This document shows, piece after piece, positions 2-25,678 of a DNA stretch of 62,586 nt (position 1 is its first letter; each line of letters starts with the position of its first letter). The stretch is from the NCBI GenBank assembly GCA_031554075.1, contig JAVBKJ010000011.1:1-62586 (forward strand), given 5' to 3'. This stretch comes from Oscillospiraceae bacterium. GTDB taxonomy: Bacteria; Bacillota; Clostridia; Oscillospirales; UBA929. A program made the position numbers and the translations under genes. The notes below the pieces were generated by a model. It saw only the letters and a program-made list of their open reading frames with translations. It was not told where the DNA came from and ran no database searches.

Positions 2-850
2 ATTAAACCTTCTCACTTACAAGCCTTTTATACTAACCTTCAAGAAGTTGGTATTAACGCAAAAACGGGTGGAAAGTTGTCAGCTTCATCGGTAGCGCAT
101 TATCATCGGCTGCTATCCAGTATGTTTACCAATGCAGTGCAAATGGGTATTCTTTCTGGCAATCCCGCAGCGCGTGTGCGTCCCCCTAGAATTGAACAGA
201 CCGAAGCCATCAATCTTTCGGAAGAGCAAGCGGCGACACTCTTAAAAGCCTTGGAAGATGAACCCATACAGTTTCGCACAATGGTTACCTTACTTTTGTA
301 TGTGGGCATGAGAAAGTCGGAGTTACACGGACTAAAATGGCAAGACTTAAACAATAAAACAGGTGTATTGCATATTGAACGAGAGCTGCAATATATACAA
401 AGACAAGGGCTAATTATAAAACCCCCAAAAAATAAAAGTTCCCAACGGGCGGTTAAGCTTCCGTTGGGAGTGTTGGAGATATTGAAGCAATATCGGGCCT
501 GGCAAAGCCAGGGGCAGCTGGCAGTAGGTGAATTATGGCAGGGGGAAGGGTGGATATTCACTCAGCCAGACGGCAAGCCACGACACCCAGATAGCTTACC
601 AAAGCAATTCAAAGCCTTTTTAACGCGTGCAAATTTACCCAAAGCCATCCACTTGCACACACTTCGTCATAGTTGTGCATCATTTCTGATAGCATCAGGT
701 GTGGACTTGCGCACTGTATCAAAGCGGCTAGGTCATTCGACGTCGGTTACCACACAAGTTATCTATGCCCATCAAATTCGTTCAGCAGATGAAGCCGCCG
801 CAGACGCCTTAGATTTAATTTTAAGTAGGGCATCATCACAAAACATTTGA
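2..850 (+). CDS. Tyrosine-type site-specific integrase/recombinase, 5'-truncated by the window edge
   Basis: The frame of ORF 77..850 stays open back to nt 2 (IKPSHLQAFYTNLQEVGINAKTGGKL...). The C-terminal HTLRHSCASF...LGHSTSVTTQVIYAH fits the R-H-R-Y catalytic pattern of phage-type integrases. Confidence 0.9.
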   Translation: MKPSHLQAFYTNLQEVGINAKTGGKLSASSVAHYHRLLSSMFTNAVQMGILSGNPAARVRPPRIEQTEAINLSEEQAATLLKALEDEPIQFRTMVTLLLYVGMRKSELHGLKWQDLNNKTGVLHIERELQYIQRQGLIIKPPKNKSSQRAVKLPLGVLEILKQYRAWQSQGQLAVGELWQGEGWIFTQPDGKPRHPDSLPKQFKAFLTRANLPKAIHLHTLRHSCASFLIASGVDLRTVSKRLGHSTSVTTQVIYAHQIRSADEAAADALDLILSRASSQNI

Positions 851-10187: not shown

Positions 10188-13100
10188 TTAGGTAAAAGAG
10201 AAATTCCCCAATATGGAAGTATTGCCTCCGAGGGTCATATTAAAAGATAAGCCACCATGGGTGTAATCAATTACAGTACCGTCTGGATGACTGAACGTCG
10301 CGCCTAGTGCCACAAGTTCATCATAAGTAAGCGTTTCGGGAGAACCACCGCTATAGTTTACTGTGATGACAAGATCTTTCAAATTTAGTGGTCCTAGTGT
10401 AGTTAAGTTCAAGCCAGAAACTAGCGCAACGCCGCCCACATAAATTGACACTGGGAACTGTACTGATACTTTGATGGTGTTACCATCTGTACTGGGGTTT
10501 GAGTTTGCGACAGAGGTAGAAATGCCCAGTATACTGGTGGTAAAGCTTGTAGGGAAGGTATAGCCACTATCAGCCACTAAGGTAATTTCAGCGGTGTAGC
10601 TTGTAGCGCCTAAAAACGGATTGCCGCTTGACAATGTTCCGCCTATCGAAGACCAGACAATGTCCGAAATCGAATAATGACCATTGCCACCATCGCCGCT
10701 CAGGTCGCCTGCCGCTGGTGCTTTAAAGCTTGCCGTTGGCTGACGTATACCTGTGATGTTCGCCGTTGTTATGTCTATCAGTGCCGGCGGCGGTGTTGTG
10801 ACAGTAATGCGGTTGGTGTGAACTGTGTAGCCGTTGTAGCTAAGAATCACACGGGTATTGTGATGTGACATGTCTATGAGCGTGCCTTCCGCAGGGGTGA
10901 CGGTTATGCCATTTGCGCCAAAGTTAGCATAGGGGATAATCTGCTGGCTGCCGTCACTCATGGTAAAGCGAGCTGCCAAGGTCGTGTAATCCAGTGGTTG
11001 ACCCACCTCATAGATAAGCTTAGGATTCGTATACAGCGTAAAGCTTGTGACATTCACAGTGGGCGGTGTGACTGGTTTCGGGGTAATAACCATCGCACCC
11101 GTTGTGGCTATCGCCGTGCCGCAATGTAGCGTAATGGGGTTGCCGTTTTGCAGTATGCCCAGATTATAACCATGGGTAGGGCTTGCTGTAATCGCTGGCT
11201 CATGCTGAGAAAACTGGCTAAACGGCACAAGCGCGGTGTCCCCGTTGCTGTAGGTAACGCGCACAACGAGACCAGATAATTGCAAGGCATCCATTTCAAA
11301 GTACGCCAGCGTAGGTTGTGTATCAACCGCTATGCTAGCGACTGTTAGCGGTGCTGTTTGGGGGAATATGTAAGATAGCGTCATGGTGTTGCGCTCGGTG
11401 TTGGGGGTAGGATTGGTCGTGTAGGCTACATTGCCGTTTATGAAACCTTGGCACAATCCTGCAAATGTGTAGGCTGTGCCTGCCTTAACAGTTACCTTGG
11501 CAGTGTAGTTTGTGTTGGGCTTAAACTTACCTGTGGCAGTGAAGATATCCGCCGCATTGGTGTTGCCCGCGACGCTCCACTCCAAACTAACAGGCGACAA
11601 GACCCCGTCTGCCGACGAGTTGTACGTTAGGGCAGGTGTGCCGCTCGTGACAGGAGCCACAACACCAGTCACCCTCACATCGGTGATAGGTTTGAAATCG
11701 AGGATTAGCGACGTGGTGGTGGCCGAGGCTGTGCCGCAGGTGACAACGATGGGCTTGTTATGGTGCGCAGCAGCAGACAACACCGTGTTCTGCGTGGGGC
11801 TTACGTATACCGTTGGATTGTGAGTGGCAAAGGCAGCATAAGGCACATTGTGTTCGACAGAACCATCGTTATAGGTAATGTCAACTTTTAGCCCACCTAG
11901 CTTTAATTGGTTGCCTGTTACGTACGCCATCTTGGTCGGCTGATTTGCCACTGTGATACTAGCGGCAACGCGTGAACCAGTTGGTGGGAAAGAGTATTTT
12001 AAGGTAATCACATTGCCATCTGTATTCGGCGCGGTGTTGGTGACGGATACAAACAACCCGTTGATTTTGCCAGTGCAAGCCGCGGCAAATGCGTAATTGT
12101 TTAGTGCTTTCAATGTGATAGTGACGTCGTATGTCGTATTCGCCTTAAATTTGCCGTTTGCAAAGATGGTGGCAGCGTTAGTGTCTGCACCAATTGACCA
12201 TACAATGCTTTCGGCAGTGTATTGCCCCGCTGTCATAATAGATGGTGCGGTAATGGGTGTGCCGCCGATTGTAGGTGCGGTAACATTGGTCGCCGCCGCT
12301 GTCATGATGAGGTTTGCATTAACGGTCAACATACCCACTGGGATGGTCGTGCCAAGACAGGTTAGGGTGAGTGTCGTGCCATTATGTGTGGCATTGCTAA
12401 GGATTGTGCCGTGCGCCACAGAAGGTGTGATGCCGTGTAGGGCTAAGTCTGCATAGGGGACAGTTTTCGTCGTGCCGTCATTGTAGGTGAGGCTAACCGT
12501 TAAGCCCGCGAGGTTTAGGGTAGCACTTTGTGTGTAAACCATTGTCGTGGGAGGTGTAATGACAGCGAAGTTTGTGAGAGCCACACCAACTGTGGCGGGG
12601 AAGGTATAGGTTAGTGTCAATTCGTTCTCTGCCACATTGGGGGTAAGATTGCCCACATTGTTGGCATTCTGCGTATTTACCTTGCCCGTGCATCCATTTT
12701 TGAAGGTATAGCCAGACACTGCCTTGAGGGTAATCACCGCTGTATAGGCTGTGCCTGCTTTGAACGCACCCGTAGGGGTAAATATGTTTGTCTGAGAGCC
12801 GCCCACAGTCCACGTTACGTCCGTAGCAACATAGGTGCTGTTGCCAACGACAACAACGCCAGACGTAGCAGGCGTGTTGCCCTTAACAGGGGCAGGTAGT
12901 GTTGCTGTAACTGCGGCAATTTTAGCAGGTTTCACAATCAGCTTGGTGATTGACGTTGCCACACCACCCGATGCAGTGGTAACGCGCAACGCCTGCTTGT
13001 TATTATCTGCTATAGTTAATAGCGTGCCATTTGATGGGGTTACCCGTATCTGAGGTGTATGGGTGTCAAAATCGCTGGCATAGACGATTTCTGTTGCGTT

Positions 13101-16100
13101 ATCACTGTAAGTCAGTTTTACGCTCATGCCAGCCAACGCGAGTGCGTCTCCTTGAGTATAACTCATAAGGCTAGGGTCAGTCAAGACTTGAATAGAAGAA
13201 ACTGCTAAACTACCCGTTTTTGGGAAAGTGTACGTGACGGTCATTGTGTTGGCGGCAATGCCAACATTTGTCACCGTTGCGCCAGCCGCTTGCAGATTTA
13301 CTGTTGCGTTGGCTGTGCCTGCAAAGGTGTAGCCTGCATTTGCCTTGAGTGTGGCGGTGATGGAATACACCTTATCGGGGGCAAACTTTCCGTCGGCTGT
13401 CATGATATAATCGGTCGAGCCGCTAACGTTCCAAACAAAGTTTGTGACAGTGAAATGCCCGCTGTTAATGAGTACTTGTGCGGCTGTGGTGGGTGTGACA
13501 CCGATGGTGGGTTTTGTGATGCCCGTAAGCACAGCAGTGGTGATAACGTCTGGCAACACAGATAGATTGCCAGTGGTGTCCTGCCCGCCAGCAGGAGAAC
13601 CCACGCGTATGGCAGTCAAATGATGTTCCGCGGTTGTCAGTGTTGCGCCTTGGGCAACGCTGACGCCAAGGAGCGGTGAATGATTGTAAAAGTTTGCGTA
13701 GGGTACTCTGTTTTCAACTGTGCCGTCGTTATAGGTAATATTAACGGTTAATCCTGTTAAATCGAGCGGTTCGCCCTCAATATAGTTCATTTTCAAGGGC
13801 TGTGTTGCGATTACCAAGTTGTTAATCTTACGAATTGCCGTCATGGGAAAGGTGTAGGTAACTTGGATTGTGTTTCCGTCTGTCCCAGGGGTGGTGTTGG
13901 TTACGACACCGTTAAGACCATTAACCGTGCCGACACAGTCTGGTGAAAAGGCATAGCCAGCGAGTGCCGCAAGGGTGATGGTAACCGTATACACCTTGTC
14001 AGGCATAAACATGCCCGTTGGCGTAAATTCAGCACCAGAGGTACTGCCGCCAACACTCCATACCATTTGCTGTATCGCAAATTTGCCACCATTGCCGTTT
14101 ATCGCGGCTAAGGAGGAGGGCATAGTATTGATGGTAGGGATGCCGATGTCTGTCAGATTCGCGATGCTAATATTGACAGGGACAACGGTGAGATTCAGCG
14201 TATTCGCAGAGCCGCCTGCGGTGGTCGAGACGATAATGGGCTTGCCATTGTGCGTTGCAATCGCCATAACCGTGCCGCCTGCTGGTGCCGCTGTGATTTT
14301 AGGCACATGCGTCGCAAAGGCGGTGTGCGGCACGCCACTTTCCACTGTGCCATCATTGTAGACGAGATTCACGGTCAGACCCGTCAAGTCTAACGTCTCA
14401 CCGACATGATAGGCAAGCTTATCGGGCTGTGATGTAATCGTAAAGCTGTTTGTCGCCAAAGCCCCTGTTTTGGTGAATGACAAGGTTGCTGTGATGGTGT
14501 TGCCGTCTGCTCCTGCCGCCGTGTTTGTGACAACAGCGGTAAGACCATTGATGGTGACAGTCGAGCCGACCACAAAGGTGTAGTTGGGGTTGGCTTTCAA
14601 AGTGGCAACAGCTGTGTAGACAGTGTTTGCCTTAAATTTACCAGCGGGGGTAAAGATATTGGTCGTCGCACCGCCAACCTGCCACTGTAGGTCAAGGATA
14701 GAAAATTTGCCGTTGTTCGTATTCACATCCGTCGCGGCTGCTGGCTGATTGCCCAGAACAGGTGCGGCGACATTGGTTAGTACAGCATTGGCAATGTTGA
14801 TGGAGGTAACTGATAGCGGATTCGTCGTAACCAAACCGCCTAAATTTGTCGTAACGGTAATGGGCTTGCCGTGATGCGTCGCCACTGTGAGGGGTGTTCC
14901 TTGTGAGGGTGAACAGACAATCACAGGATTGTGCGCCGCAAAGGCTGTCGAGGGTATATTTGTTTCCGACGTTCCGTCATTGTAAGTAATATTAACTGAC
15001 AGTCCTGCCAAATTCAGCGTAGCACCTGCGGCATAGGTCAAGGTGGTCGGCTGTTGCGCAAGTGTCATGGTGGACACCGCCAAGGGAGCTGTCTCGGGGA
15101 AGGCAAGCGACACGACAACGGTATTACGTTCAACACCTGGTGTCACGGCAGACACGTAAGCGTCTTGACCATTAATGGTAGCTTTCATGCCAGGGGTGAA
15201 GGAATATGTAGCGTCAGCCTTGAGTACCACATCGACGGCGTATTTTGTCGAGGCTCTAAATTTCCCAGCAGGTGTCAATACGGGCGAAGCTGGCGCATCT
15301 GCTGCCAAACGCCACACCATACTCTGCACTGCAAATTTTCCGCCGTTTATGTTTACCACGCCTTGCGTGGCAGGCGTAGCACCGACGACAGGCGCAGGGA
15401 TACTTGTTAATGCAACTGTTGTGATATCATTTAACACTACCTCGAGGTTGGCGGTGTTCGCAGAGCCACCGATGGCAGAACTCACGGTGACAGGCTTACC
15501 GTTGTGCGTCGCAATGGTAAGCGTTGTACCATGTGCAGGGGTTGTGGTAATCACTGGCACGTGAGACGCAAAAGAGTTGTAGGGTACAGTATTTTCAGTC
15601 GTACCGTCATTGTATATAAGATTCACAGCCAAACCAGTTAAGTCTAGTTTTTGCCCTGTTATGTAGCTTAACTTGGTGGGTTGCGAAGCGATGGTCAAGC
15701 TTGTAATCGCCCGCGCCCCTGTTTTAGGGAACGTAAAGGCGACGCTAATACTGTTGCCGTCCACACCCGGGCTGACATTGGTAATGATGGCTGTCTGTCC
15801 GTTAATGGTGGCGGCACTGCCAACGACAAAGGACGCACCAGCGTTTGCCTTAATTGTTGCAACAGCGGTGTACACGGTATCAGCCTTAAAGGTAGCATTA
15901 GGTGTCAAAATGTTGGTGGTGGCACCATTTACCTGCCACGTTAGGTTTTGTATGACAAAGTTGCCGCCATTAGTGTTGACAGAGGTGTAGGTAACGGGCG
16001 CAACACCCAGCACGGGCGCTGTTATCCCTGTCAGGTTGGCGGTGAGGATACTTGTTGGTCCGACTGCTAACGCACCTGTATAGAGTGTGCCGCCTGCCGC

Positions 16101-17678
16101 AGTGGTTATTTTAATGGTCTTACCATTGTGCGTTGCGGCGTTTAGTAGCGTATCGTTTGCTAAATCGGTATAGATGGCAGGCACATTACTGGCAAACGCA
16201 CTATACGGTACGTTGCTGTCAGTACTGCCGTCGTTGTAACTAATGTTCACTTTTAGTGCCGATAAATCTAGTGCTTCCCCTTGCTTATAGGTAAGCTTCG
16301 GTTGCTGCACAATGCTAAAGCCCGTGACCGTCTTTGCCGCAGTTTTGGGGAAGGTAAAGGAAACGGCCATTCTATTGCGGTCTTTACCAGGTTCTAAGAG
16401 AGAAACAACGGCTGTCTGCCCATTAATAGTGGCGGTACTGCCCACCACAAAGGTCGCTCCAACGTTTGCTGCAACCCCCACTACGGCTGTATAAACTGTA
16501 TCCGCCTTAAATTTACCGTTCGGCGTCAGTGCATTAGTGGTGGAGTCGTCTACTCTCCACTGCAGGGCGTAAGTCGAATATGTACCACCGTTTGTGTTGA
16601 CGACAGCGTGGGTAATTGGTGTTGCACCCATCACTGGCGCAGTAACATTGGTAAGGGTAACATGTGTAATGTTTGCTATGGCAGGCTTTACACTTAAGTT
16701 GCCGACTGTTACTATCTTGCCAGAGACCGACACAGTCAACGCCGCACCGTTGTGACCCGTGGTCAACCCTGTACCATGACTGTAATTCACTGAAATAACG
16801 GGGTTGTGTGAGGCAAAGGAACTATACGGTATATTACTCTCTGTCGTGCCATCCGTATATGTTATGGTAGCACTCAAGCCAGACAGGTTCAGTGCTTGCC
16901 CCACTGTGTAGCTTAGGTTGGGGTTACCTACAATGGTTATTTGAGACGCTACCCGTTCGGCAGGCTTTACACTTAAGTTGCCAACCGTGACCGTCTTACC
17001 AGAGACCGACACAGTCAACGCCGCACCGTTGTGACCCGTGGTCAACCCTGTACCATGACCGTAATTCACTGAAATAACGGGGTTGTGCGAAGCAAATGAG
17101 CTGTAGGGTATGTTGCTCTCTGTCGCGCCATCTGTATACATAATGGTGGCACTCAAACCAGAGAGATTCAGTGGTTGCCCCGCCGTGTAGCTTAGGTTTG
17201 GCTGCCCAGAAATTGAAATATTGTAAGCAGTGCGAACAAGCTGTCCCGTAGCAGGGAAAGTAATCGCAAAATCGGCTAATGCAAGGAGATTGGCTTGGTA
17301 GCGTCTTCCTTCTATTCCATTAATAAACCCTCGTAAATATGGGCTGAATATATTGGAGTTATTTCTGGAAGCAGCAAGGATTTTGACAGTATACACTGTG
17401 TCAGCATTAAACTTCTCTCCACTAAAATAAGGGCCTTGTTCCCCACCAACAAACCAATCAACGTTGTTAACGAAATATTTATCTGTGTCATCGCCTGACG
17501 TTTGCTGAGCACCAGAAACTCTGAACGGTTTTGCACCTGCTACAGGCGCCGGAACATTAAAGTATACTGCTGAAACTAATGCCCCATTCATTACATAAGA
17601 CGCTTGTGCCTCGGGCATGGGCATCAGTCCGCATAGTAACAGTATCGCTAAAGCAACAGATATAATTCTCTTTTGCAT
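10188..17678 (-). CDS. Giant secreted modular protein (2,496 aa): signal peptide plus 11 'A' modules (~115 aa) interleaved with 13 bacterial Ig-like (Big_3-type) 'B' modules (~93 aa); no recognisable wall or membrane anchor
   Basis: Signal peptide MQKRIISVALAILLLCGLMPMPEAQA. B modules match I..QP.KL.Y..G..LDL.GL.V...YNDGT.E..VPY..FA.H.P.I. A modules match VTAPV.G..P.......NGG.F......W.V.G.....TP.GKFKA.TVYTA...LKA..GYTF........ING......N..PG.DGNTI.V..TFPKT. The protein ends ...GNTSILGNFSFT with no LPXTG, SLH or TM segment. AAGGAG RBS. Confidence 0.85.
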   Translation of the reverse strand: MQKRIISVALAILLLCGLMPMPEAQASYVMNGALVSAVYFNVPAPVAGAKPFRVSGAQQTSGDDTDKYFVNNVDWFVGGEQGPYFSGEKFNADTVYTVKILAASRNNSNIFSPYLRGFINGIEGRRYQANLLALADFAITFPATGQLVRTAYNISISGQPNLSYTAGQPLNLSGLSATIMYTDGATESNIPYSSFASHNPVISVNYGHGTGLTTGHNGAALTVSVSGKTVTVGNLSVKPAERVASQITIVGNPNLSYTVGQALNLSGLSATITYTDGTTESNIPYSSFASHNPVISVNYSHGTGLTTGHNGAALTVSVSGKIVTVGNLSVKPAIANITHVTLTNVTAPVMGATPITHAVVNTNGGTYSTYALQWRVDDSTTNALTPNGKFKADTVYTAVVGVAANVGATFVVGSTATINGQTAVVSLLEPGKDRNRMAVSFTFPKTAAKTVTGFSIVQQPKLTYKQGEALDLSALKVNISYNDGSTDSNVPYSAFASNVPAIYTDLANDTLLNAATHNGKTIKITTAAGGTLYTGALAVGPTSILTANLTGITAPVLGVAPVTYTSVNTNGGNFVIQNLTWQVNGATTNILTPNATFKADTVYTAVATIKANAGASFVVGSAATINGQTAIITNVSPGVDGNSISVAFTFPKTGARAITSLTIASQPTKLSYITGQKLDLTGLAVNLIYNDGTTENTVPYNSFASHVPVITTTPAHGTTLTIATHNGKPVTVSSAIGGSANTANLEVVLNDITTVALTSIPAPVVGATPATQGVVNINGGKFAVQSMVWRLAADAPASPVLTPAGKFRASTKYAVDVVLKADATYSFTPGMKATINGQDAYVSAVTPGVERNTVVVSLAFPETAPLAVSTMTLAQQPTTLTYAAGATLNLAGLSVNITYNDGTSETNIPSTAFAAHNPVIVCSPSQGTPLTVATHHGKPITVTTNLGGLVTTNPLSVTSINIANAVLTNVAAPVLGNQPAAATDVNTNNGKFSILDLQWQVGGATTNIFTPAGKFKANTVYTAVATLKANPNYTFVVGSTVTINGLTAVVTNTAAGADGNTITATLSFTKTGALATNSFTITSQPDKLAYHVGETLDLTGLTVNLVYNDGTVESGVPHTAFATHVPKITAAPAGGTVMAIATHNGKPIIVSTTAGGSANTLNLTVVPVNISIANLTDIGIPTINTMPSSLAAINGNGGKFAIQQMVWSVGGSTSGAEFTPTGMFMPDKVYTVTITLAALAGYAFSPDCVGTVNGLNGVVTNTTPGTDGNTIQVTYTFPMTAIRKINNLVIATQPLKMNYIEGEPLDLTGLTVNITYNDGTVENRVPYANFYNHSPLLGVSVAQGATLTTAEHHLTAIRVGSPAGGQDTTGNLSVLPDVITTAVLTGITKPTIGVTPTTAAQVLINSGHFTVTNFVWNVSGSTDYIMTADGKFAPDKVYSITATLKANAGYTFAGTANATVNLQAAGATVTNVGIAANTMTVTYTFPKTGSLAVSSIQVLTDPSLMSYTQGDALALAGMSVKLTYSDNATEIVYASDFDTHTPQIRVTPSNGTLLTIADNNKQALRVTTASGGVATSITKLIVKPAKIAAVTATLPAPVKGNTPATSGVVVVGNSTYVATDVTWTVGGSQTNIFTPTGAFKAGTAYTAVITLKAVSGYTFKNGCTGKVNTQNANNVGNLTPNVAENELTLTYTFPATVGVALTNFAVITPPTTMVYTQSATLNLAGLTVSLTYNDGTTKTVPYADLALHGITPSVAHGTILSNATHNGTTLTLTCLGTTIPVGMLTVNANLIMTAAATNVTAPTIGGTPITAPSIMTAGQYTAESIVWSIGADTNAATIFANGKFKANTTYDVTITLKALNNYAFAAACTGKINGLFVSVTNTAPNTDGNVITLKYSFPPTGSRVAASITVANQPTKMAYVTGNQLKLGGLKVDITYNDGSVEHNVPYAAFATHNPTVYVSPTQNTVLSAAAHHNKPIVVTCGTASATTTSLILDFKPITDVRVTGVVAPVTSGTPALTYNSSADGVLSPVSLEWSVAGNTNAADIFTATGKFKPNTNYTAKVTVKAGTAYTFAGLCQGFINGNVAYTTNPTPNTERNTMTLSYIFPQTAPLTVASIAVDTQPTLAYFEMDALQLSGLVVRVTYSNGDTALVPFSQFSQHEPAITASPTHGYNLGILQNGNPITLHCGTAIATTGAMVITPKPVTPPTVNVTSFTLYTNPKLIYEVGQPLDYTTLAARFTMSDGSQQIIPYANFGANGITVTPAEGTLIDMSHHNTRVILSYNGYTVHTNRITVTTPPPALIDITTANITGIRQPTASFKAPAAGDLSGDGGNGHYSISDIVWSSIGGTLSSGNPFLGATSYTAEITLVADSGYTFPTSFTTSILGISTSVANSNPSTDGNTIKVSVQFPVSIYVGGVALVSGLNLTTLGPLNLKDLVITVNYSGGSPETLTYDELVALGATFSHPDGTVIDYTHGGLSFNMTLGGNTSILGNFSFT
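16681..17238 (-). repeat. Two tandem 279-bp copies (93 codons each) encoding the first two B modules
   Basis: Copies 16681-16959 and 16960-17238 align without gaps and share a 61-nt perfectly identical core (ccagagaccgacacagtcaacgccgcaccgttgtgacccgtggtcaaccctgtaccatgac). By eye, identity is roughly 85-90% over the first ~230 nt. Confidence 0.85.
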
Positions 17679-17763
17679 AAAATAAAACTCCTTAAAATGT
17701 CAATATGTATTAATTTAGCATCCGAAAACGATAGCTGTTGCTGTTAGGATACGGTATTACCAG

Positions 17764-17940
17764 TTATTTCTGGTTTGTTTCCTTAGTGTCCATGGCTAGC
17801 AAACGTTGTTCGAGATTCATAGGCTCTTGTGATTGATGCAGAAAAAAATCACACGCAGATCTTGTGCTTTTTGTGGCCGTTATCTTTGCCAAGGATGCCA
17901 TCTTTCTTGTGAAAAAATTGCCTTTTTTGTTAGTGTTCAT
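17764..17940 (-). CDS. agrD: AgrD-type autoinducing-peptide precursor (58 aa; not in the supplied ORF track)
   Basis: Hand translation: MNTNKKGNFFTRKMASLAKITATKSTRSACDFFLHQSQEPMNLEQRLLAMDTKETNQK. AAGGAG RBS (17951-17956) lies 10 nt before the ATG. The ORF sits immediately after and overlaps agrB by 11 nt. Cys, a 5-residue ring candidate (CDFFL) and Pro at Cys+10 match S. aureus (CDFIMDEVEVP) and clostridial AgrD. An alternative start at Met14 gives 45 aa. Confidence 0.75.
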   Translation of the reverse strand: MNTNKKGNFFTRKMASLAKITATKSTRSACDFFLHQSQEPMNLEQRLLAMDTKETNQK

Positions 17941-18529
17941 TTTGTGTTTTCTCCTTATATAATGTAGTTAGTACAGCAAATGCCATACTTCCGCAAACGG
18001 ACAACATGGATAAGAGTATGGCGGTAAAGATGCGCGAGGGACAAAAAAACGTGCCGACGGTACAGCCCACTGCAAATGTAAAAGCCACAATAATGCTTTT
18101 TAGTTTCAGTGTGCGTTTTAACGTCGGCTTTAGGTACTTATTGACATGCGCCACGGGGGCGAGGGCAAGGACTGTCAACAGCGTAATGCCACTGATGATA
18201 ACAGATAGCATTCTGTAGCTTTCTTGTGGCAGCCATTGCAATAGTAAAAGGCTTACTGTAAGGAGGCAGGCAAAGGCGGTGATACATCCAGCATGTGTCT
18301 GCGCATGATGTCCGCCCGTAAAGCCGCGAAACAACGCAAACGCGAAAGTAAACACCACGCCCTCCCAAAACATTCCAAAACATAGGGAAATCAGCAAGCT
18401 TAGCAAACAATTAAATAGGGTGGATACAATTGTTTCACAAGCGTAAGTATAAATGTCGTCATCCTCTTGCGCGATGATGCCTTGCCTTATAAAAACAGAT
18501 GCTATCCGTTTCGCCAAGGTGTGAATCAT
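17930..18529 (-). CDS. agrB: AgrB-family accessory gene regulator protein (AIP-processing membrane peptidase)
   Basis: Multi-TM protein carrying the family motif FRGFTGGHHA. I prefer the ATG at 18529 (MIHTLAKRIA...) preceded by GGGGTGA. The ORF track extends to a TTG at 18589. Confidence 0.85.
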   Translation of the reverse strand: MIHTLAKRIASVFIRQGIIAQEDDDIYTYACETIVSTLFNCLLSLLISLCFGMFWEGVVFTFAFALFRGFTGGHHAQTHAGCITAFACLLTVSLLLLQWLPQESYRMLSVIISGITLLTVLALAPVAHVNKYLKPTLKRTLKLKSIIVAFTFAVGCTVGTFFCPSRIFTAILLSMLSVCGSMAFAVLTTLYKEKTQNEH

Positions 18530-18597
18530 TTGTATCACCCCAGGGCTAAGAATAGCATCTGTTATGTATATTTTCAAGTGGCTATGCAAAATTGACG

Positions 18598-19920
18598 TTA
18601 ATCATGCAAAATTGGAATGCGCGGAATCGAAAATAAAAGACGAAATACATTTTCATCAAACTCAAAGCTCAGTTCGCCCCCTAGCGAACGAGCGGTTGCC
18701 TGCATACTGATCAGTCCTAAACCGTGAGAATCCTTATCATTTTTCAGAGTGTGTAAGAAAGTGCCATCATATTGAGGTCTTTCTCCGATTGTGTTCTCTA
18801 TTACCGTCAACATATTGGTTTTATACATGGACACACGCATATGTATAAACCGTTCTTTGTCACTTCGCATACACGCCTCAATCGCGTTATCTAGCGCGTT
18901 GCCAAATAAAGCACAAATGTCAACTGTGAGATCAGACATTTGGGGAGGCACTTGAATGTCCCAATGGCACTGGATATGATTCTTTTTGGCGAGATTTCGT
19001 TTTGCGGATAACAGCGCGTCGAGCATCGGGTTATCGGTTAAAACCACAGGCGTGACATCGTGTTGCCAATCGGTAAGCTTCGCCAAACTATCAGACAGTT
19101 CGTCAAATTGTCCCATTTCGCAAAGCGACCGAAACATATGCACGTGTTGCTTAAAATCATGCGACATTTGCCGTATTTGCGCCCGATTTTCTGTCAGCTG
19201 CAAAATATAATCACGCTGTGCGGCAACCTGTGCATCTAATAAGGCTAATCGTTTGTCTTTTTCACTGCGGCGAATAAGCTCCTCCATGATAGAGAAAACC
19301 GCCATATTGATTAAGACTAGCCCGAAAATGCAAAACAATGTTGTGATAGTTTGGGGGCTATAGTCTGACAACGCGTCTATTGTAAATTGCAGTGCTAAGA
19401 AAATTGAAAAAATAGGTAGCATCCATAGCGGAATCCAAAGTCTGGAACGCATGACCTCCATGCTCCCGACACGCAATCTCATTATGATTTTGATTAATAG
19501 AAATTTGAGCAAATCCATGATAATCAGCGCAGCAAACCTATATTTTGTAAAATCTGCCACCTGCTGAAATGTAACTGTTTGCGAAATGGATATGATAACG
19601 GCCGCCAGAAGCTCCGCGCCAATCGCACATAGAAGATATATAAAAGCGGACAGCACAGCCCATAGGACAGTACACTGCCGTGTCGTAAGACAGACTATAA
19701 ACGTAAAGAGGATGGTGCTTGATAAAATAATCAATATGCTGTCTTTTAGAAAGTAGCTGATGAGAAATTTTGCGATACAGACACAGAGAAAGAGTGTCAA
19801 CACGAGTGGCTTGCGCAGTGTACGACGTTCCTTAAAAAAGGCACTAGCAAACATGAAAATTAAGATAGTTTCTATCAAGGCGCTCAGTGCTTCGATGATA
19901 GCCCAAAGCGAAATGTTCAT
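18598..19920 (-). CDS. agrC: AgrC-like (HPK10) membrane sensor histidine kinase
   Basis: About 6 N-terminal TM helices, H-box SHDFKQHVHMF, N-box FGNALDNAIEA, G-box DSHGLGLISM. Confidence 0.8.
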   Translation of the reverse strand: MNISLWAIIEALSALIETILIFMFASAFFKERRTLRKPLVLTLFLCVCIAKFLISYFLKDSILIILSSTILFTFIVCLTTRQCTVLWAVLSAFIYLLCAIGAELLAAVIISISQTVTFQQVADFTKYRFAALIIMDLLKFLLIKIIMRLRVGSMEVMRSRLWIPLWMLPIFSIFLALQFTIDALSDYSPQTITTLFCIFGLVLINMAVFSIMEELIRRSEKDKRLALLDAQVAAQRDYILQLTENRAQIRQMSHDFKQHVHMFRSLCEMGQFDELSDSLAKLTDWQHDVTPVVLTDNPMLDALLSAKRNLAKKNHIQCHWDIQVPPQMSDLTVDICALFGNALDNAIEACMRSDKERFIHMRVSMYKTNMLTVIENTIGERPQYDGTFLHTLKNDKDSHGLGLISMQATARSLGGELSFEFDENVFRLLFSIPRIPILHD

Positions 19921-20633
19921 GATAGCCCCTCCCGTCTAAAGCCCATATAGGCAGCTTTGACAAGCTTTTGATACTTTCGACTAATGGGGATTTTTGTGCC
20001 ATCTAGCAGGGACACATGGTCGTCGAACTGGATAAACACATGCGCCAAATTAACAATATATGAATTATGAGTTCGCACAAACCCGTGATGTACCAACAGC
20101 GGTTCTTCGATATCCAACTTGCCCATAAACTCGTATTTTCTGTCAATTGTGTTGACATGTATGTAGTGCTTGACACTTTCGATAAATTGTATGTCTGCCA
20201 TTGGTAAGGCGAGTTGACCGCCGCCCTTTAACTTTATGACGTATGTTTGGGTCTTTCTGCGGGTGAGCATGGTGACAATTCTGTCCATCGTGGGTTCAAA
20301 CCGTTCCCTAGTGACTGGCTTTACTAAGTAGTCAGACGCCATCACTGTAAAAGCCTGCAGCATCGCTTCTTCCATAAACGTGACGAAGATTATATGTACG
20401 CGCATGTCTAGCATTCGAATCTTTTCAGCTAAGGCAAACCCATTCATGTCGGGCATCGACACATCTAAAAACAGTATGTCAAAGTGGCGACTTGGATAGT
20501 CTAGCAATAGTTTGGCGGCGGTGTCATATTCATTTACATCGAAGTTGAGCATATGTTGTTTTTCGTACTGGGCAATGAGTTTTCTCTGACGTTCGATATG
20601 AATTTTCTCATCGTCACAAATCGCTATTCGCAT
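19917..20633 (-). CDS. agrA: AgrA-like response regulator (REC plus LytTR DNA-binding domain)
   Basis: MRIAICDDE...DILFLDVSMPDMNG receiver domain. C-terminal LytTR pattern ...FVRTHNSYIVNLAHV...IPISRKY. 4-nt ATGA overlap with the kinase gene. GGGAGG RBS. Confidence 0.85.
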   Translation of the reverse strand: MRIAICDDEKIHIERQRKLIAQYEKQHMLNFDVNEYDTAAKLLLDYPSRHFDILFLDVSMPDMNGFALAEKIRMLDMRVHIIFVTFMEEAMLQAFTVMASDYLVKPVTRERFEPTMDRIVTMLTRRKTQTYVIKLKGGGQLALPMADIQFIESVKHYIHVNTIDRKYEFMGKLDIEEPLLVHHGFVRTHNSYIVNLAHVFIQFDDHVSLLDGTKIPISRKYQKLVKAAYMGFRREGLS

Positions 20634-20647
20634 GAATTGCCTCCCAT

Positions 20648-20764
20648 CTGGATACTCTGTCAGATTATATCATAATGGAAAATATAATCAATAGCAAGTG
20701 TAACAGACAAAATAGGCATAGAAGTAAGGCGCATGGATGTAAAACGGGCGGTATGGTGAAGGGG
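20648..20764. repeat. 117-bp direct repeat, copy 1 (promoter module upstream of agrA)
   Basis: Aligns without gaps to 23592-23708. About 6 mismatches in the first 80 nt, a ~10-nt divergent patch, then a conserved distal block (cgggcggtatggt[g/a]aagggg). Confidence 0.9.
20664..20691 (-). promoter_or_regulatory. Sigma-A-type promoter for the agr operon (TTGATT-16 nt-TATAAT with TGn extended -10)
   Basis: Minus strand reads ATTGATTatattttccattaTGATATAATctgaca. The predicted start is about 25 nt before the agrA ATG. Confidence 0.6.
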
Positions 20765-20820
20765 GGAATTGATTGTGGAATTTAAGTCGGGGGTGATGGT
20801 GGCTGTGGAGGAATAATGGT

Positions 20821-20860
20821 AAGAATGAAAAAGGCACTCTACCGATTGACGTAGAGTGCC
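20821..20860 (-). terminator. Rho-independent terminator of the 793-aa gene (T tracts on both sides)
   Basis: GGCACTCTAC-8 nt-GTAGAGTGCC, followed by TTTTTCATTCTT on the minus strand and by ACTTTTGTTT on the plus strand. Confidence 0.8.
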
Positions 20861-20888
20861 ACTTTTGTTTGCAAGCATATATGTAACT

Positions 20889-23270
20889 CTATGATTGAGC
20901 TAATCCCTCTTCGAAAGAACTCTTAAATTTTCTCAAATTCTTTCTTGCGATTTTCATAGCCTCAACGGATTCTTCAGCTTTCTTTATCTTTCCTTGGAGT
21001 TCCTTCTTCTCTTTGCCATTTGCTACATCTGCATGAAGTTTTAATTCGACAATACCTTTTTCGATCTCCATAATATTTTGCACATATTGCTCGTAGATGC
21101 TGTTTGAATACTCAATATCGTGTTCGTCATTAAGGAAGATTTCTCTGACTGAAACAAGGAGTTTTGCGGACTGTAAAATGGTATTTTGCTTTCCGAGTAG
21201 ACCAGCAGCACCAACAGCACCGCCGACACCTAAACCGGCTCCAATACCGAGTACAGCTCCGCCACCGACAATTGCTATCGTGCCACCAGCCATTCCTGCA
21301 CCGCCTATAGCAATTGCGCCACCGCCGAGATAAGCAAGACAAGCACTTGTTAGTGCCGCACCACTGAGTCCAGCAAAATTCGAGCCAACTAATGCAACGG
21401 CAATTGCAGGAGCAAACGCACCCGCTGTTGCAATTGTGATGATTGCTATTCCGGCGGTTATTGCTCCCCCTATTAAAATCCCCTTGAGAACTTCTTTCAT
21501 TTCTAAAACGACTTTGCCGTAACATTTGCGAAGCCTTTTAATATAACCTTTTTTATAATAATCACCAGAGAAAAACAAATCGATAAAATCGTCACCGTTG
21601 CTTTTCCTATAACTGTTAATAGGGTTTTGTAGGTCTTTGTATTTCTTACTCGGCACGCCAGTGCCCATTTTATCTTTTTCTATACTTAGCGGATAAAATG
21701 GCTCAAAAAGCATTGCTTCAAGTAGAACCAAGCGAAACCAAGTATTATGTGGCTCGTTTTCCTCAATTTTCTGAATTAATTCTTGCTCTGTGTACCAGTG
21801 TAGTTCAGCACCTTCAATTTGCAAGAAACTTGAAAAGCCCTTCGAGATGTACTCTTTCCACTCATTGAGCCAGTCTTGCTTTAGGCGTTTTATACCTTCA
21901 TTGTTGATAGGCGATATTGTTGCTTGAATGTCATTTAGGGTTTTGTAGAATTCGAGGTTGTACAAAATCTCTGTCTGGGCTACCGTTAAACCAAGTTTAT
22001 CAATATTCATATCGGCACTTATCCTATCATAAATTTTGTCGTCAGTTTTCGTATATGCAAACCTATGAATGTTCTCGTACATCGTCTTTATTCTTTTGAC
22101 GCTTCTGGTTTTCAAACACCAAGATATGTCTTCTCCTAATGCAACGGTGAAACGGCCAACACCAACGTAATTGATAGACACCCAGTATTTTTGAGTGACA
22201 ATTGCCTCGCCGACATCAATGGTGGTAAAGACTCCAGTAGCGATCGTTAGCATTCGGGAAATTGTGGGATTATTTAGCGGCTTAACTATGTCCCAATCAA
22301 TCTGTTTCATTTCAGCAAATGACCGAATGTCTTGTTCCCGAATCTCGATTGCAAGATGTCGGATGAAATAGAAACATCTAACGATGCACTCATTTGCGAT
22401 AACAGGAATCGCCTGTCGCCCAAGTTCGAAGACAACGCCGAGTTCACCGCGGAAATCAAACTTCATCACGGTATCTTTGATAATCGTGCCAGATTCATCG
22501 CGCCTCGCAAGCAACGTGCCGTTAAAGAGTTTTGACAAAAACACTGATAAAGAATTATCGCCGATATTTATGTTTTTGAAAATCGGAAGCACAGATAGTT
22601 CTTTTGCCAACGCAAGCAGGGGACCGGGGATGCCAGTACCGCCACTCTTGCCTACGGAACTTCTCGAACCGGCTACATCACTCACGAGATGAAAGAACCA
22701 CGTAATAGTTCCGAATAGTATTTTTGATGGCACATCCTTACCAATGAAGGCTTTACTTACTTCCTGCACGTCGGCAATCATAAAAACACCGTTGACATCT
22801 GTTCCGTATGACTTGTAGGTGAACTGTGTAAGGAGTGAAAATATAAGCCCTACAATTGTGGGGTGGTGAGCAAAATCACGAAGATGGTGCTGTAAGCCGC
22901 CACCAAAGTCAGGGGTATTGCCATCGCTTGGAATCGGAAATTTCTTTTCAAGGAATTTTACCGCACCCTTCAAATCGTCGCCACTGTAACCGAGAAGCTT
23001 TGCTGTTTTGGTTACAAAGCTGTCTATTTCATTGCTCGTGATGCTGCGACCACGTTCCAAGCTAAAGCTACCTACCCATAGAATGTCGAGCAATCCGCAC
23101 ATAACCCCGCTACCAATTGAAACCAAGTAGTCGTATTTGTCCGCTTGGCTTGACAGCAAATCAATCTGACTGTCTAAGTCGAAGATTATCCTATCAAGGT
23201 TATACTCAGAATCAAACTTGCTCTCGTTGTACTGTTGAAGTTCGACTTGGAGATTATCTGTTTCTAACAT
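20889..23270 (-). CDS. Uncharacterised 793-aa protein: unassigned ~600-aa N-terminal region, ~100-aa glycine-zipper (GxxxG/AxxxG) membrane tract, charged coiled-coil-like tail
   Basis: Long ORF with a GGGAGG RBS. The tract is GILIGGAITAGIAIITIATAGAFAPAIAVALVGSNFAGLSGAALTSACLAYLGGGAIAIGGAGMAGGTIAIVGGGAVLGIGAGLGVGGAVGAAGLLG. The tail is ...KEKKELQGKIKKAEESVEAMKIARKNLRKFKSSFEEG. I see no canonical Walker A or other catalytic motif. Confidence 0.8.
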   Translation of the reverse strand: MLETDNLQVELQQYNESKFDSEYNLDRIIFDLDSQIDLLSSQADKYDYLVSIGSGVMCGLLDILWVGSFSLERGRSITSNEIDSFVTKTAKLLGYSGDDLKGAVKFLEKKFPIPSDGNTPDFGGGLQHHLRDFAHHPTIVGLIFSLLTQFTYKSYGTDVNGVFMIADVQEVSKAFIGKDVPSKILFGTITWFFHLVSDVAGSRSSVGKSGGTGIPGPLLALAKELSVLPIFKNINIGDNSLSVFLSKLFNGTLLARRDESGTIIKDTVMKFDFRGELGVVFELGRQAIPVIANECIVRCFYFIRHLAIEIREQDIRSFAEMKQIDWDIVKPLNNPTISRMLTIATGVFTTIDVGEAIVTQKYWVSINYVGVGRFTVALGEDISWCLKTRSVKRIKTMYENIHRFAYTKTDDKIYDRISADMNIDKLGLTVAQTEILYNLEFYKTLNDIQATISPINNEGIKRLKQDWLNEWKEYISKGFSSFLQIEGAELHWYTEQELIQKIEENEPHNTWFRLVLLEAMLFEPFYPLSIEKDKMGTGVPSKKYKDLQNPINSYRKSNGDDFIDLFFSGDYYKKGYIKRLRKCYGKVVLEMKEVLKGILIGGAITAGIAIITIATAGAFAPAIAVALVGSNFAGLSGAALTSACLAYLGGGAIAIGGAGMAGGTIAIVGGGAVLGIGAGLGVGGAVGAAGLLGKQNTILQSAKLLVSVREIFLNDEHDIEYSNSIYEQYVQNIMEIEKGIVELKLHADVANGKEKKELQGKIKKAEESVEAMKIARKNLRKFKSSFEEGLAQS

Positions 23271-23591
23271 ATTAAAGTATCCTCCCAGTATTTAAAATTT
23301 AAGCGATGCAACGCCCCCCTTGAGGTTAAACTAATATCTGCAAAGCAAACAGAGAACTTCAGTGCTATCACACATGAGATTACACGCAAAAACATCTAAA
23401 GCGACCACACAACCTCATAAAATCCGAAAAACATCTACTCCGCTCTCTCGTGAACACCCAATATCTAAACTGACCTCTCGTCAACCACCCACATCCAATC
23501 AGTGCTGTCACACTCCCAACTGCCGCACTCGACTTATTCCCAACACCCATATTTCCACGATTTTTCACATTGACTTCTCACATAGAAACAC

Positions 23592-23708
23592 CTGGATACT
23601 CTGTCAAATTATATCATAATGGAAAATATAATCAATTGCAAGTGCAATAGACAAAATAAGTATAGAAGTAAGATTTATAACTGTATAACGGGCGGTATGG
23701 TAAAGGGG
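23592..23708. repeat. 117-bp direct repeat, copy 2 (promoter module upstream of the 793-aa gene)
   Basis: See copy 1. The two copies are 2,944 bp apart. Confidence 0.9.
23608..23635 (-). promoter_or_regulatory. Sigma-A-type promoter, paralogue of the agr promoter, driving a ~330-nt leader and the 793-aa gene
   Basis: It carries the same TTGATT-16 nt-TGATATAAT arrangement inside repeat copy 2. Confidence 0.55.
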
Positions 23709-23711
23709 TAG

Positions 23712-23747
23712 ATAAAAAATAAGACACCTTACGAAACGTAGGGTGTC
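23712..23747 (-). terminator. Rho-independent terminator of the flavoprotein gene
   Basis: GACACCTTACG-AAA-CGTAGGGTGTC, followed on the minus strand by TTATTTTTTAT. Confidence 0.8.
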
Positions 23748-23778
23748 CTAATGAGCGTAGTCGTCTATAAAGACATAT

Positions 23779-24342
23779 TCAAATAGAGTAGCCCATATGT
23801 TCCGCTTGTATCAGCGCATCTGTCTTCTGAATAGCCCCTTTTTCATATATTTGTGGGATTGCTAACACGCCGACATCTTCCCAGTGCATATACGCCGCCA
23901 TATGTCTGTATGAAGAAATGACACCTGAAAAAATATCCATGCTCTCACATGCGCCACAAATCAACAGTATACTCTCTTTAATCTTCAATGGACGCATACA
24001 GTTTTCAGAATCATACGCATTCAGTTTATCAATCGGTGCTTTGATTTGCGATGATAACCCAAACAAATATAAGGGAGATGCAAAGATAACTACATCTGCA
24101 CGTTCAAGTAGCGGCTCTAGTTCAGTAAAGCCATCTTGAAATGAACAAGCCGTTCCTTTGCTCCAACAGGTACCACAGGCTTTGCAACCGCCAATCGTTT
24201 TTCTGCCCGCCGAAAATTTTGTAACATTGTGACCTTTCGCTTGTGCGCCCTTTATAAACGCATCAGCCATCAGTTCACTATTACCATCTCTTCTGGGACT
24301 TCCTGTAATAACTAAAATATCTTTTTCCACTTTATTTCTCAA
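23779..24342 (-). CDS. Flavodoxin-like NAD(P)H-dependent FMN reductase / iron-sulfur flavoprotein family
   Basis: ILVITGSPRRDGNSELMADAF... and the Cys cluster GGCKACGTCW. Confidence 0.7.
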   Translation of the reverse strand: MRNKVEKDILVITGSPRRDGNSELMADAFIKGAQAKGHNVTKFSAGRKTIGGCKACGTCWSKGTACSFQDGFTELEPLLERADVVIFASPLYLFGLSSQIKAPIDKLNAYDSENCMRPLKIKESILLICGACESMDIFSGVISSYRHMAAYMHWEDVGVLAIPQIYEKGAIQKTDALIQAEHMGYSI

Positions 24343-25678
24343 CTCGTGACATCAATACCACCGTCTCAACGTGCGTCGTGCGGGGGAAAAGGTCAACGGC
24401 GGCGCAATGGGTGACTGTGTAGCCGCTGGCGGCCAACGTTTTGCAGTCGCGCGATAGCGTGCCGGGGTCACAGGACACATACACAATGCGTTGAGGCTGT
24501 AGGGTGAGTAACGCCTCAATATGAGCGGCGTCTAGCCCACTGCGTGGCGGGTCAACGGTGACAACCGCGGGCGATAGGTCGCTTAATTGCGCACCCAAGT
24601 CGCCTGCGTCACCTGCTTGAAAGCTGGCGTTGAAGATGCCGTTGCGCGCCGCATTTTCTCTGGCACAGGCCACCGCCTGCGGCACAAGTTCGACGCCGAA
24701 CGCCGCCTTGCAGTCACGCGCCAGCCACAGTGTAATCGTACCAACACCGCAAAATAAGTCAACAAATGTGTCATCCTTTGTGAGGGCGGCGTAACCGCGA
24801 ACAATGTCGTACAGGCGCACGGCTTGGGCGGAATTTACCTGCGCAAACGAAAAGGGGTGTAGTTCAAACTGCAAGTCGCCCAACGTCTCGATAACGGTGT
24901 CTTCGCCCCACAGCACCTTCACTTGACCCTGACCCATGACGACGTTATCACGTCGTTGGTTCGTTATCGTTAGCAAGCCTGCCAGATCGGGTACGCGCTC
25001 GCGCAACGCGTCTGCCAATGTATCCCCCCATGGGAAATGTTTTCCATTTATAATAAGTGCCACTTGCACACCCTTTGTGGCGCGTACAAACAGATGGCGC
25101 ACAAGCCCTTCCCCCGTTTTGGGGTCATAGGCGGTAATCTCATTTTTGTCCATAAATTCGCACAGTACTGCCGCGACGCGGTTTGCACGCTCGTCTGCTA
25201 TCAGGCAGTTGCCGTATGCAATGATATCATGCGAATGGGCGCGAAAAAATCCAACAAATGTCTTGCCGTCTTGTTGTGCGACAGGGAACAGTGATTTATT
25301 GCGATAGCCCGACAGGGCAGGCGCGCCATGCATCGTATCAACGGTGACGGGCATACCGCCAATACGCGCAAAGGCTTGCTCGATGCGCCGTTGCTTAAAC
25401 CACAGTTCTTCCTCATACGTAATATGTTGAAAATGACAGCCGCCGCAAGGGGGGCAAACAGGGCAAGCGGACGCGATGCGGTGCGGTGATGGTATCTCTA
25501 TGTTCTCTACCTTACCCCACGCAACTTTGGTGGCGACCTTGAGAATCCTAATTTCGCAGGTTTCCTCGCGAACCCCGCCATGGACAAAGACGGCCTGCCC
25601 CTCAATGTGGCAGACCCCTAAGCCCTCACTGGAATAATCAGTGATGACAACTGTATGTAGCTGATTTTTTTCTAACAT
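24332..25678 (-). CDS. RumA/RlmD-family 23S rRNA (uracil-C5)-methyltransferase (TRAM domain, Fe-S Cys cluster, SAM-MTase)
   Basis: N-terminal TRAM-like domain, Cys cluster CPVCPPCGGCHFQH, SAM motif DLFCGVGT, C-terminal VYVSCDP. Confidence 0.8.
   Translation of the reverse strand: MLEKNQLHTVVITDYSSEGLGVCHIEGQAVFVHGGVREETCEIRILKVATKVAWGKVENIEIPSPHRIASACPVCPPCGGCHFQHITYEEELWFKQRRIEQAFARIGGMPVTVDTMHGAPALSGYRNKSLFPVAQQDGKTFVGFFRAHSHDIIAYGNCLIADERANRVAAVLCEFMDKNEITAYDPKTGEGLVRHLFVRATKGVQVALIINGKHFPWGDTLADALRERVPDLAGLLTITNQRRDNVVMGQGQVKVLWGEDTVIETLGDLQFELHPFSFAQVNSAQAVRLYDIVRGYAALTKDDTFVDLFCGVGTITLWLARDCKAAFGVELVPQAVACARENAARNGIFNASFQAGDAGDLGAQLSDLSPAVVTVDPPRSGLDAAHIEALLTLQPQRIVYVSCDPGTLSRDCKTLAASGYTVTHCAAVDLFPRTTHVETVVLMSRVEK

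Follow-up and report, generated by a model that had tools for sequence, protein, structure and literature searches.

Bunzi is a two-gene defence system in which BnzB is paired with BnzA, a TerB-domain protein with predicted membrane helices (Millman et al. 2022). Among mobile elements, serine-recombinase elements such as the vanG elements and ICE-r use the 3' end of rumA as an insertion hot spot across species, with the insertion point at a GAG codon 11 codons from the end of the gene (PMC4120198). Both subjects meet in a gene of an Oscillospiraceae bacterium (NCBI GenBank assembly GCA_031554075.1), on contig JAVBKJ010000011.1, whose positions 1 to 62,586 form the 62,586-nucleotide window analysed here. 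This gene, referred to below as gene X, lies on the minus strand at 20889–23270 and encodes a protein of 793 residues whose N-terminal part is homologous to BnzB and whose C-terminal part resembles the membrane region of BnzA. An earlier note, made from the sequence of the window alone, had described it as an AT-rich orphan of suggested foreign origin, encoding a candidate single-gene, membrane-acting defence or abortive-infection effector. In the reading preferred here, gene X is a single-chain, TerB-less variant of Bunzi that is carried on mobile elements and acts at the membrane against phages, an interpretation to which we assign a probability of about 0.5.

A BnzB-like domain and a predicted membrane segment in one chain

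The relationship to BnzB rests on two comparisons. The PADLOC profile for BnzB matches residues 37–248 of gene X over profile positions 156–373 of 504 (expectation value, E=3.9e-44), and a BLASTP comparison of residues 26–309 with the experimentally verified BnzB of Ligilactobacillus animalis gives 26% identity at E=4e-20, the Bunzi protein sequences (first ~400 residues each) being those of the supplement to the Millman et al. 2022 preprint. The BnzB-like domain extends over residues ~24–400 (22071–23201, minus strand) and is modelled by AlphaFold2 as mostly alpha-helical, with one beta-hairpin (residues 153–167). Alignments of 58 and of 55 family sequences reveal two conserved motifs within it. 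The first is a histidine cluster, HHLRDFAHH (residues 128–136; 22863–22889), in which at least 90% of the sequences retain H128, H129, D132, H135 and H136, and which gene X and verified BnzB proteins have in common as HH...H or HH.....H.P. The second, at 22623–22691, consists of H194-x-x-S197-D198 followed by a glycine-rich loop, AGS...G.GTGIPGP, with H194, S197, D198, G201, G211, G213, P215 and G216 nearly invariant, and it aligns with GHIMSDIAGS...GAGLPAP of the verified BnzB; the string GSRSSVGKS, to which the earlier note had drawn attention, falls inside this region. The conserved His/Ser/Asp cluster and the glycine-rich loop probably form a ligand- or metal-binding site. A conserved hydrophobic helix in the same domain, YLVSIGSGVMCGLLDILWVG (residues 46–67; 23071–23135), scores as transmembrane-like both here and in most relatives checked, two-gene BnzB types included, and BnzB-like domains may themselves dip into the membrane.

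The remainder of the protein forms a separable C-terminal module that starts at M421 and opens with a middle helical domain (residues ~426–596; 21483–21995), modelled at a predicted local distance difference test score (pLDDT) of mostly 75–95 and without any Pfam match, TerB or other. It continues into an uncharged Gly/Ala/Ile tract, residues 597–694 (21189–21482), recognised by composition and hydropathy as a predicted membrane-spanning segment: 98 uncharged hydrophobic residues, 28% Gly and 25% Ala, between charged flanks. This tract is strongly conserved across the family, for example as AGLSGAALTSA.LA..GGG, and BLASTP aligns residues 545–691, a low-complexity region, with the transmembrane region of Escherichia coli BnzA (249–386) at 29% identity over 148 residues (E=1e-4). 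The PADLOC profile PDC-M09A matches the C-terminal module of gene X at E=4e-4 (profile positions 96–195 of 282) and the relative P0137 at E=1.3e-14 (positions 54–276 of 282), and the module also shows a weak match to the C-terminus of LeoBC. The protein ends in a Lys/Glu-rich helical tail (residues 695–793; 20889–21188 including the stop codon), whose composition over the last 96 residues is 15% Glu and 14% Lys, and which is modelled as three long helices (684–715, 719–749 and 752–792) at pLDDT 84–91. Composition, hydropathy and the AlphaFold2 model thus agree with the three-part layout that had been proposed from reading the sequence.

The full-length AlphaFold2 model reaches a mean pLDDT of 76.9, with high values in residues 40–390, 430–590 and 690–793, and the N-terminal domain modelled alone reaches 90.9 with a predicted template-modelling (pTM) score of 0.81. 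With Foldseek, neither the full-length model (searched against PDB and BFVD) nor the N-terminal domain (searched against PDB; best E=0.74, TM score at most 0.16) gave a match at E<=0.001, and the predicted fold is therefore without a solved relative. The weak top matches are membrane transporters; the alpha-pore-forming toxin SmhA appears at E=2.4 and is not counted as evidence. Sequence searches of PDB with the gene X protein and with the 58-sequence profile were likewise without match, and searches of Pfam, NCBIfam and PHROGs returned nothing significant, no housekeeping family among them.

The family to which gene X belongs is absent from Pfam and NCBIfam and is nevertheless very large, so that the description of the gene as an orphan no longer applies. 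More than 3,206 homologues were found by a word-indexed search, the best 120 of which are all 77–92% identical over their full length; homologues at this level include Syntrophomonas wolfei and metagenome-assembled genomes labelled Oscillospiraceae and Clostridiaceae. An exhaustive search of representatives at 50% identity yielded 2,240 clusters at E<=0.001, of which 477 reach E<=1e-30, and full-length relatives of ~770–800 residues at 33–47% identity are common. The BnzB-like part occurs alone in proteins of ~500–540 residues, which is the two-gene Bunzi type, found in its two-gene form on a lactococcal plasmid (pJM1B; plasmid locus L018), and the module corresponding to residues 421–790 occurs as a stand-alone gene of ~375 codons with unrelated small genes upstream (L019–L022). 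Since both halves occur separately, gene X is a fusion of two separable modules, and the C-terminal one may be an independent membrane module with other possible partners. The idea that the stand-alone C-terminal genes are frameshifted full-length genes was ruled out, as no N-domain sequence lies upstream of them in any frame. The 1285-residue relative P0174 is an independent fusion, joining a BnzB-like domain to a BnzA-like region (BnzA profile, E=5e-17), and shows that fusion of the two Bunzi parts does occur. The BnzB-like part is also fused to OmpA, peptidase M48 or microbial ADP-ribose glycohydrolase (PARG) domains, combinations typical of conflict systems. In two full-length relatives, P0146 and P0150, the microbial-type PARG domain is N-terminal in one and lies beyond residue 820 in the other, a possible sign that the family is connected with ADP-ribose signalling or modification.

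Mobility and genomic neighbourhoods

Comparison between hosts indicates that gene X is horizontally mobile: the protein is 78–100% identical between hosts whose adjacent RumA proteins are 32–53% identical, with 100% against 39% in one pair, and the guanine-plus-cytosine (GC) content of the gene stays at 42–43% regardless of host. In the window and in five further loci (L001, L013, L014, L015 and L016) the gene lies just downstream of a rumA-type gene, which in the window is a (uracil-5)-methyltransferase gene at 24332–25678 on the minus strand, identified with Pfam, whose 3' end is the insertion hot spot described above (PMC4120198). In L013, L015, L016 and L017 the gene faces convergent large serine recombinase genes, and relics of such recombinases are present in the window, in L004 and in L023–L027; open reading frames (ORFs) of 85–94 codons that take this place elsewhere are 65–84% identical to the C-terminal ends of intact serine recombinases. 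A conserved small partner gene downstream of gene X had been considered as a candidate and was rejected, since what lies there is the relic of a serine recombinase C-terminus. In the window this relic, RGELIVEFKSGVMVAVEE*, is an 18-codon remnant of a large serine recombinase gene's 3' end (20760–20816, plus strand, convergent with gene X), recognised by translation and by DNA similarity to L004. In the latter locus the gene lies far from any rumA, and a relic of the rumA 3' end (...DMFPHTVHVETVVLMSRM*; ...VDMFPHTVHVETVVLMSRM*) precedes the leader at ~7760–7830, which means that the gene took a fragment of the hot spot along when it moved. The neighbours in L004 are methylglyoxal synthase, TnpB and RNase H genes.

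A single-protein scan of the genome collection gave only 4 loci. The genomic contexts examined comprise the window and 14 other distinct ones. They are variable-island and defence-island settings, with none in a core-genome context: McrB/McrC followed by a serine recombinase (L008), a DISARM-like neighbourhood with a C5-methylase/Vsr gene, a DrmE_C gene and a helicase gene (L023), BrxA/BrxE with integrases (L025), a dynamin–helix-turn-helix gene with serine recombinases (L016) and prophage tail genes (L014). Insertion sequence (IS) elements are also found among the neighbours of relatives. In an Oscillospiraceae metagenome-assembled genome (L006, 614–1963, plus strand), a 449-residue protein with a Gly/Ala-rich hydrophobic N-terminal region and no Pfam match is encoded directly upstream of the homologue.

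Such positions also bear on superinfection exclusion, in which a membrane-anchored product of a prophage or other element would block the entry of incoming DNA without cell death or permeabilisation. The extreme end of an integrated element is the usual place for exclusion-type accessory genes, and known membrane exclusion proteins block DNA entry; gene X and its homologues stand at such extreme ends, between the attachment site and the recombinase genes, or beside prophage tail genes, and the predicted architecture of the protein is a membrane-anchored one. A 'membrane surveillance' role was proposed for Bunzi by Millman et al. Against exclusion, the PHROGs search revealed no homology to any known exclusion protein, prediction places nearly the whole of gene X in the cytoplasm, without an external domain of appreciable size, and decay of the element often leaves the gene behind on its own, as in L004 and in the window. 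We regard this alternative as unlikely, although it retains more weight than the other rivals to the preferred reading.

The 793-codon frame is present on the minus strand, with an ATG start preceded at 10 nucleotides by a ribosome-binding site, GGGAGG (23281–23286), and it covers the full length of more than 120 homologues at 77–92% identity. Its GC content is 42.2% (60-nucleotide windows: median 0.42, range 0.23–0.63) and not the 33–38% reported before, and that of the rumA-type methyltransferase gene is 54.7% and not ~63%. The agr genes that follow gene X have 42–44% and the flavodoxin-like gene that precedes it 41%, so that gene X is not especially AT-rich relative to these neighbours. What stands out from the window (48.6%) is a lower-GC block of ~7.3 kb (17000–24342; 41–44%) containing the agr genes, gene X and the flavodoxin-like gene, rather than gene X by itself. 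The foreign origin suggested in the earlier note is consistent with horizontal mobility and variable islands, and the argument from base composition falls away. The flavodoxin-like gene, an FMN reductase gene according to Pfam (23779–24342, minus strand), separates rumA from gene X in this genome only and overlaps the last 11 nucleotides of rumA (55% GC); it is probably another cargo gene inserted at the hot spot. Near the start of the window (77–850, plus strand) lies a gene for a 257-residue tyrosine recombinase of the Phage_integrase family, which could be a Xer-type gene or the mark of another island boundary.

A duplicated agr promoter module and a conserved leader

Gene X is organised as a single gene with its own promoter and terminators, and not as a two-gene operon. 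A near-consensus promoter, TTGATT-16-TATAAT with an upstream TG, lies at 23635–23608 and belongs to the best score class of the promoter scan, in agreement with the earlier note. It is part of a 120-nucleotide module (copy A, 23589–23708, minus strand) that recurs as a direct repeat (copy B, 20645–20764, minus strand) directly upstream of the gene for a LytTR response regulator. The two copies are 87% identical and share an identical 28-nucleotide promoter core, for which 0 matches are expected by chance, and the proposal that gene X and the agr cassette have a promoter module in common is thereby confirmed. As direct repeats, the copies bracket a 2.8-kb block composed of leader, gene X, terminator and recombinase relic, and the relic RGELIVEFKSGVMVAVEE* is truncated exactly at the start of copy B. 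This arrangement suggests a recombination event that either placed the block within the agr promoter region or let that region capture it. No comparable sigma-70 promoter is present upstream of the homologue in L013.

The agr-type quorum-sensing cassette (17764–20633, minus strand) was identified with Pfam and has an unusual gene order, namely LytTR response regulator (19917–20633), GHKL histidine kinase (18598–19920), AgrB (17930–18589) and a candidate AgrD precursor of 58 residues (17764–17940), the last read as an ORF downstream of AgrB, containing ...SACDFFLHQSQEP... and having an amphipathic N-terminal part. Directly downstream on the same strand are two giant surface-protein genes, 2170–10053 and 10188–17678, which encode proteins of 2627 residues (SLH, fn3 and CarboxypepD_reg domains) and 2496 residues (many Big_3 repeats) and could represent agr-regulated adhesins. 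In this genome gene X has probably been placed under the autoregulated promoter of the agr operon and would then respond to its regulator. No agr cassette was found in any of the 14 other distinct genomic contexts, so that the link was rewired locally and does not characterise the family; the suggested tie to quorum sensing holds at the DNA level in this genome, through the duplicated module, and is absent from the other contexts.

A different role that takes this link at face value is that of a lytic or permeabilising factor of the agr regulon under quorum-sensing control, serving density-dependent autolysis, the release of DNA and protein, or competition. Its case consists of the module 87% identical to that of the agr response regulator, with the same -35/-10 core, and of the complete agr cassette, candidate AgrD included, that directly follows gene X. 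Apart from the agr-free contexts, however, the conserved leader and terminator of the family travel without the promoter module, and the agr link is therefore recent, local and uninformative on the activity of the protein; LytTR-type direct repeats were also not identified on reading the module. This role appears improbable, somewhat more so than superinfection exclusion.

Because the promoter lies ~337 nucleotides upstream of the start codon, the transcript has a long 5' leader (23271–23607, minus strand), a feature that is conserved in related loci and had previously been missed. The leader is C-poor and contains four direct repeats of ~21 nucleotides (23491–23511, 23461–23481, 23431–23451 and 23392–23412), with the consensus GAGTGGTCAGGTTAGATGT and spacings of ~30, 30 and 40 nucleotides. 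Leader and repeats are kept upstream of the homologue in 10 other loci (L001, L004 and L010–L017), all within the clade of at least 77% identity; about 280 nucleotides 5' of the start codon are conserved in all loci of that clade and are absent from relatives at 67–70% identity. The window contains 2 matches to the consensus, where chance alone would give 0.09, and the repeats were not detected by Tandem Repeats Finder. A riboswitch or other structured RNA was rejected (nothing in Rfam at E<=1; folding z=-0.03; RNAalifold -9 kcal/mol with almost no covariation), as were small leader ORFs (62 residues here, 37–41 elsewhere), since the repeat spacing shifts the frame between loci. When compared in register with the 3'-terminal segment of rumA from the GAG codon onwards, the repeat units match at 11–19 of 26 positions, against a mean of 8.1 and a 99.9th percentile of 15 for random 26-mers, with part of this excess arising from the register being anchored on a shared GATGT. 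On this sequence resemblance, the repeats may be decayed copies, or fossils, of the attachment-site half, or alternatively recombinase-binding sites.

At the other end of the gene, a bidirectional intrinsic terminator with a 10-bp stem and a T-run (20833–20860) was found by the terminator scan and is kept in related loci. Upstream, a terminator-like hairpin with a T-run (23714–23747, minus strand) follows the flavodoxin-like gene; it was read from the sequence, having been missed by the scanner because of one stem mismatch. The two terminators proposed in the earlier note are thus both present.

Proposed action at the membrane and comparison with known systems

In the reading preferred here, gene X would be a single-chain relative of two-gene Bunzi that travels as cargo on mobile elements directed at the rumA 3' end. 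Its hydrophilic N-terminus would be cytoplasmic because there is no signal peptide. The middle helical domain would join the ~400-residue BnzB-like domain to a ~100-residue Gly/Ala membrane segment of the BnzA type, and the three-helix Lys/Glu-rich tail probably drives oligomerisation. At the inner membrane face, the BnzB-like domain would sense a cue related to infection and alter the state of the membrane segment, which could then open a leak through which the infected cell is killed or arrested (abortive infection); alternatively, the segment might block phage entry or assembly. With the duplicated agr module ahead of the conserved leader, expression in this genome is probably tied to cell density. 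We lean slightly towards a function in defence against phages or mobile elements in general, and treat defence specifically by membrane permeabilisation as a tentative and rather doubtful refinement. The defence role first suggested for this gene now draws on BnzB homology, mobility and island contexts; the AT-richness, orphan status and toxin analogies originally offered for it have been given up.

Several points weigh against this interpretation. The likeness to BnzA sits in a low-complexity region, with a PADLOC match to BnzA of only E=0.086, and the TerB domain, the hallmark of BnzA, was not found by Pfam in gene X (E up to 1) or in 57 relatives. AlphaFold2 confidence in the Gly tract is too low for the membrane spans to be counted, and a predicted fold without a solved relative lends no support to any particular biochemistry. 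Bunzi itself has no known mechanism, and a lactococcal Bunzi gave no protection against the phages tested (PMC11381338). Only 5 family members, of which 1 was full-length, were found in a viral contig collection, and GenBank phages gave only one weak match; the prophage link is therefore occasional. As regards control by the agr regulator, no clear pair of 9-bp LytTR direct repeats at the usual ~21-bp spacing was seen on reading the module.

The tight linkage of gene X to the ends of serine-recombinase elements and their relics, together with its high conservation during horizontal spread, could alternatively reflect a function in element addiction, maintenance or transfer, performed by a toxin-like membrane protein or a stress protein with no anti-phage role. 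No conserved antitoxin-like partner gene adjoins it, however, the gene is intact in the window and in L004, where only relics of the element are left, and elsewhere it neighbours McrBC, DISARM-like and BREX genes with the recombinases missing; such a function is quite unlikely. An exported glycine-zipper toxin of the VacA or LXG kind, directed against competing bacteria, is very improbable, as it has in its favour only the Gly/Ala-rich hydrophobic tract and against it the hydrophilic N-terminus without signal peptide, the absence of LXG, WXG or other toxin-delivery domains in Pfam searches, the lack of secretion or immunity genes nearby and a GxxxG content not enriched beyond composition. The earlier note had seen in the tract a glycine zipper with many GxxxG repeats. 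The tract does contain 34 small-xxx-small spacings in 101 residues, but its GxxxG count of 7 equals that of shuffles of the same residues (7.2 +/- 2.0), and no Pfam glycine-zipper family matches gene X or the 57 relatives. The term "glycine zipper" is thus a description of composition and not evidence of kinship with VacA-type toxins, and the analogy drawn with VacA and LXG proteins, which comes without homology, export signal or GxxxG excess, is abandoned.

Returning to the single-chain Bunzi reading, a bolder form of it would make proteins of the gene X type a widespread, unrecognised single-gene anti-phage system of anaerobic Firmicutes, in which a BnzB-like domain of novel fold directly gates a BnzA-like segment and which was here captured by an agr promoter. 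Taken as a whole this is a speculative extension, and we think it more likely wrong than right by some distance; if true, the fusion would show how two-gene Bunzi works, with BnzB acting on the membrane helices of BnzA and TerB being dispensable, and the capture of the agr promoter would make a suicidal defence depend on cell density. Gene X would offer a simpler, one-gene object for the study of Bunzi, a validated defence system without a known mechanism, and a single characterised member of the family would allow thousands of hypothetical proteins of gut and digester Clostridia to be annotated. A concrete case is likewise provided by the duplicated agr module, in which a mobile defence-like gene has been rewired to quorum sensing.

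Among described systems, the two- and four-transmembrane (2TM/4TM) effectors of CBASS and Pycsar combine a cytoplasmic sensing domain with a short bundle of membrane helices, and their activation is thought to collapse the membrane. The logic proposed for gene X is the same, although there is no relationship in sequence or fold and no cyclase or nucleotide-signal gene accompanies gene X. Glycine-zipper pore formers (VacA, the Gly-zipper Pfam families and LXG-associated toxins) share with it a Gly/Ala-rich hydrophobic composition and many small-xxx-small spacings, a likeness that is compositional only, given the missing Pfam match, GxxxG excess and export signal. The profile PDC-M09A, which presumably belongs to a multi-gene candidate system (a literature search gave nothing useful to confirm this), is matched by the membrane tract and helical tail, whereas gene X has a BnzB-like domain fused in front. 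Like the serine-recombinase elements that target rumA (PMC4120198), gene X directly follows rumA in five hosts whose RumA proteins have diverged, and is flanked by large serine recombinase genes or their relics. It departs from these elements in that the recombinase genes converge on gene X instead of being co-directional with rumA, in that rumA appears intact, and in that the gene X block also occurs away from rumA, carrying a rumA 3' relic (L004).

The closest counterpart is Bunzi. In contrast to the two genes of that system, gene X is one polypeptide with the B-like part preceding the A-like part; it lacks the TerB domain, has a flavodoxin-like gene and a LytTR regulator as neighbours instead of a TerB-containing BnzA partner, and possesses an additional helical domain of ~170 residues, a longer uncharged tract of ~98 residues and a coiled-coil tail. 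Rules in DefenseFinder or PADLOC that require both Bunzi genes would consequently miss it. Residues ~26–400 are nonetheless homologous to BnzB, with the HH...H and H..SD.AGS...G.G.P.P motifs in common, the Gly-rich hydrophobic segment shows some similarity, within a low-complexity region, to the transmembrane helices predicted for BnzA, and both systems are found on mobile elements and in defence islands. From a natural fusion of BnzB-like and BnzA-like parts that lacks TerB, the two Bunzi proteins are predicted to act together in a single membrane complex.

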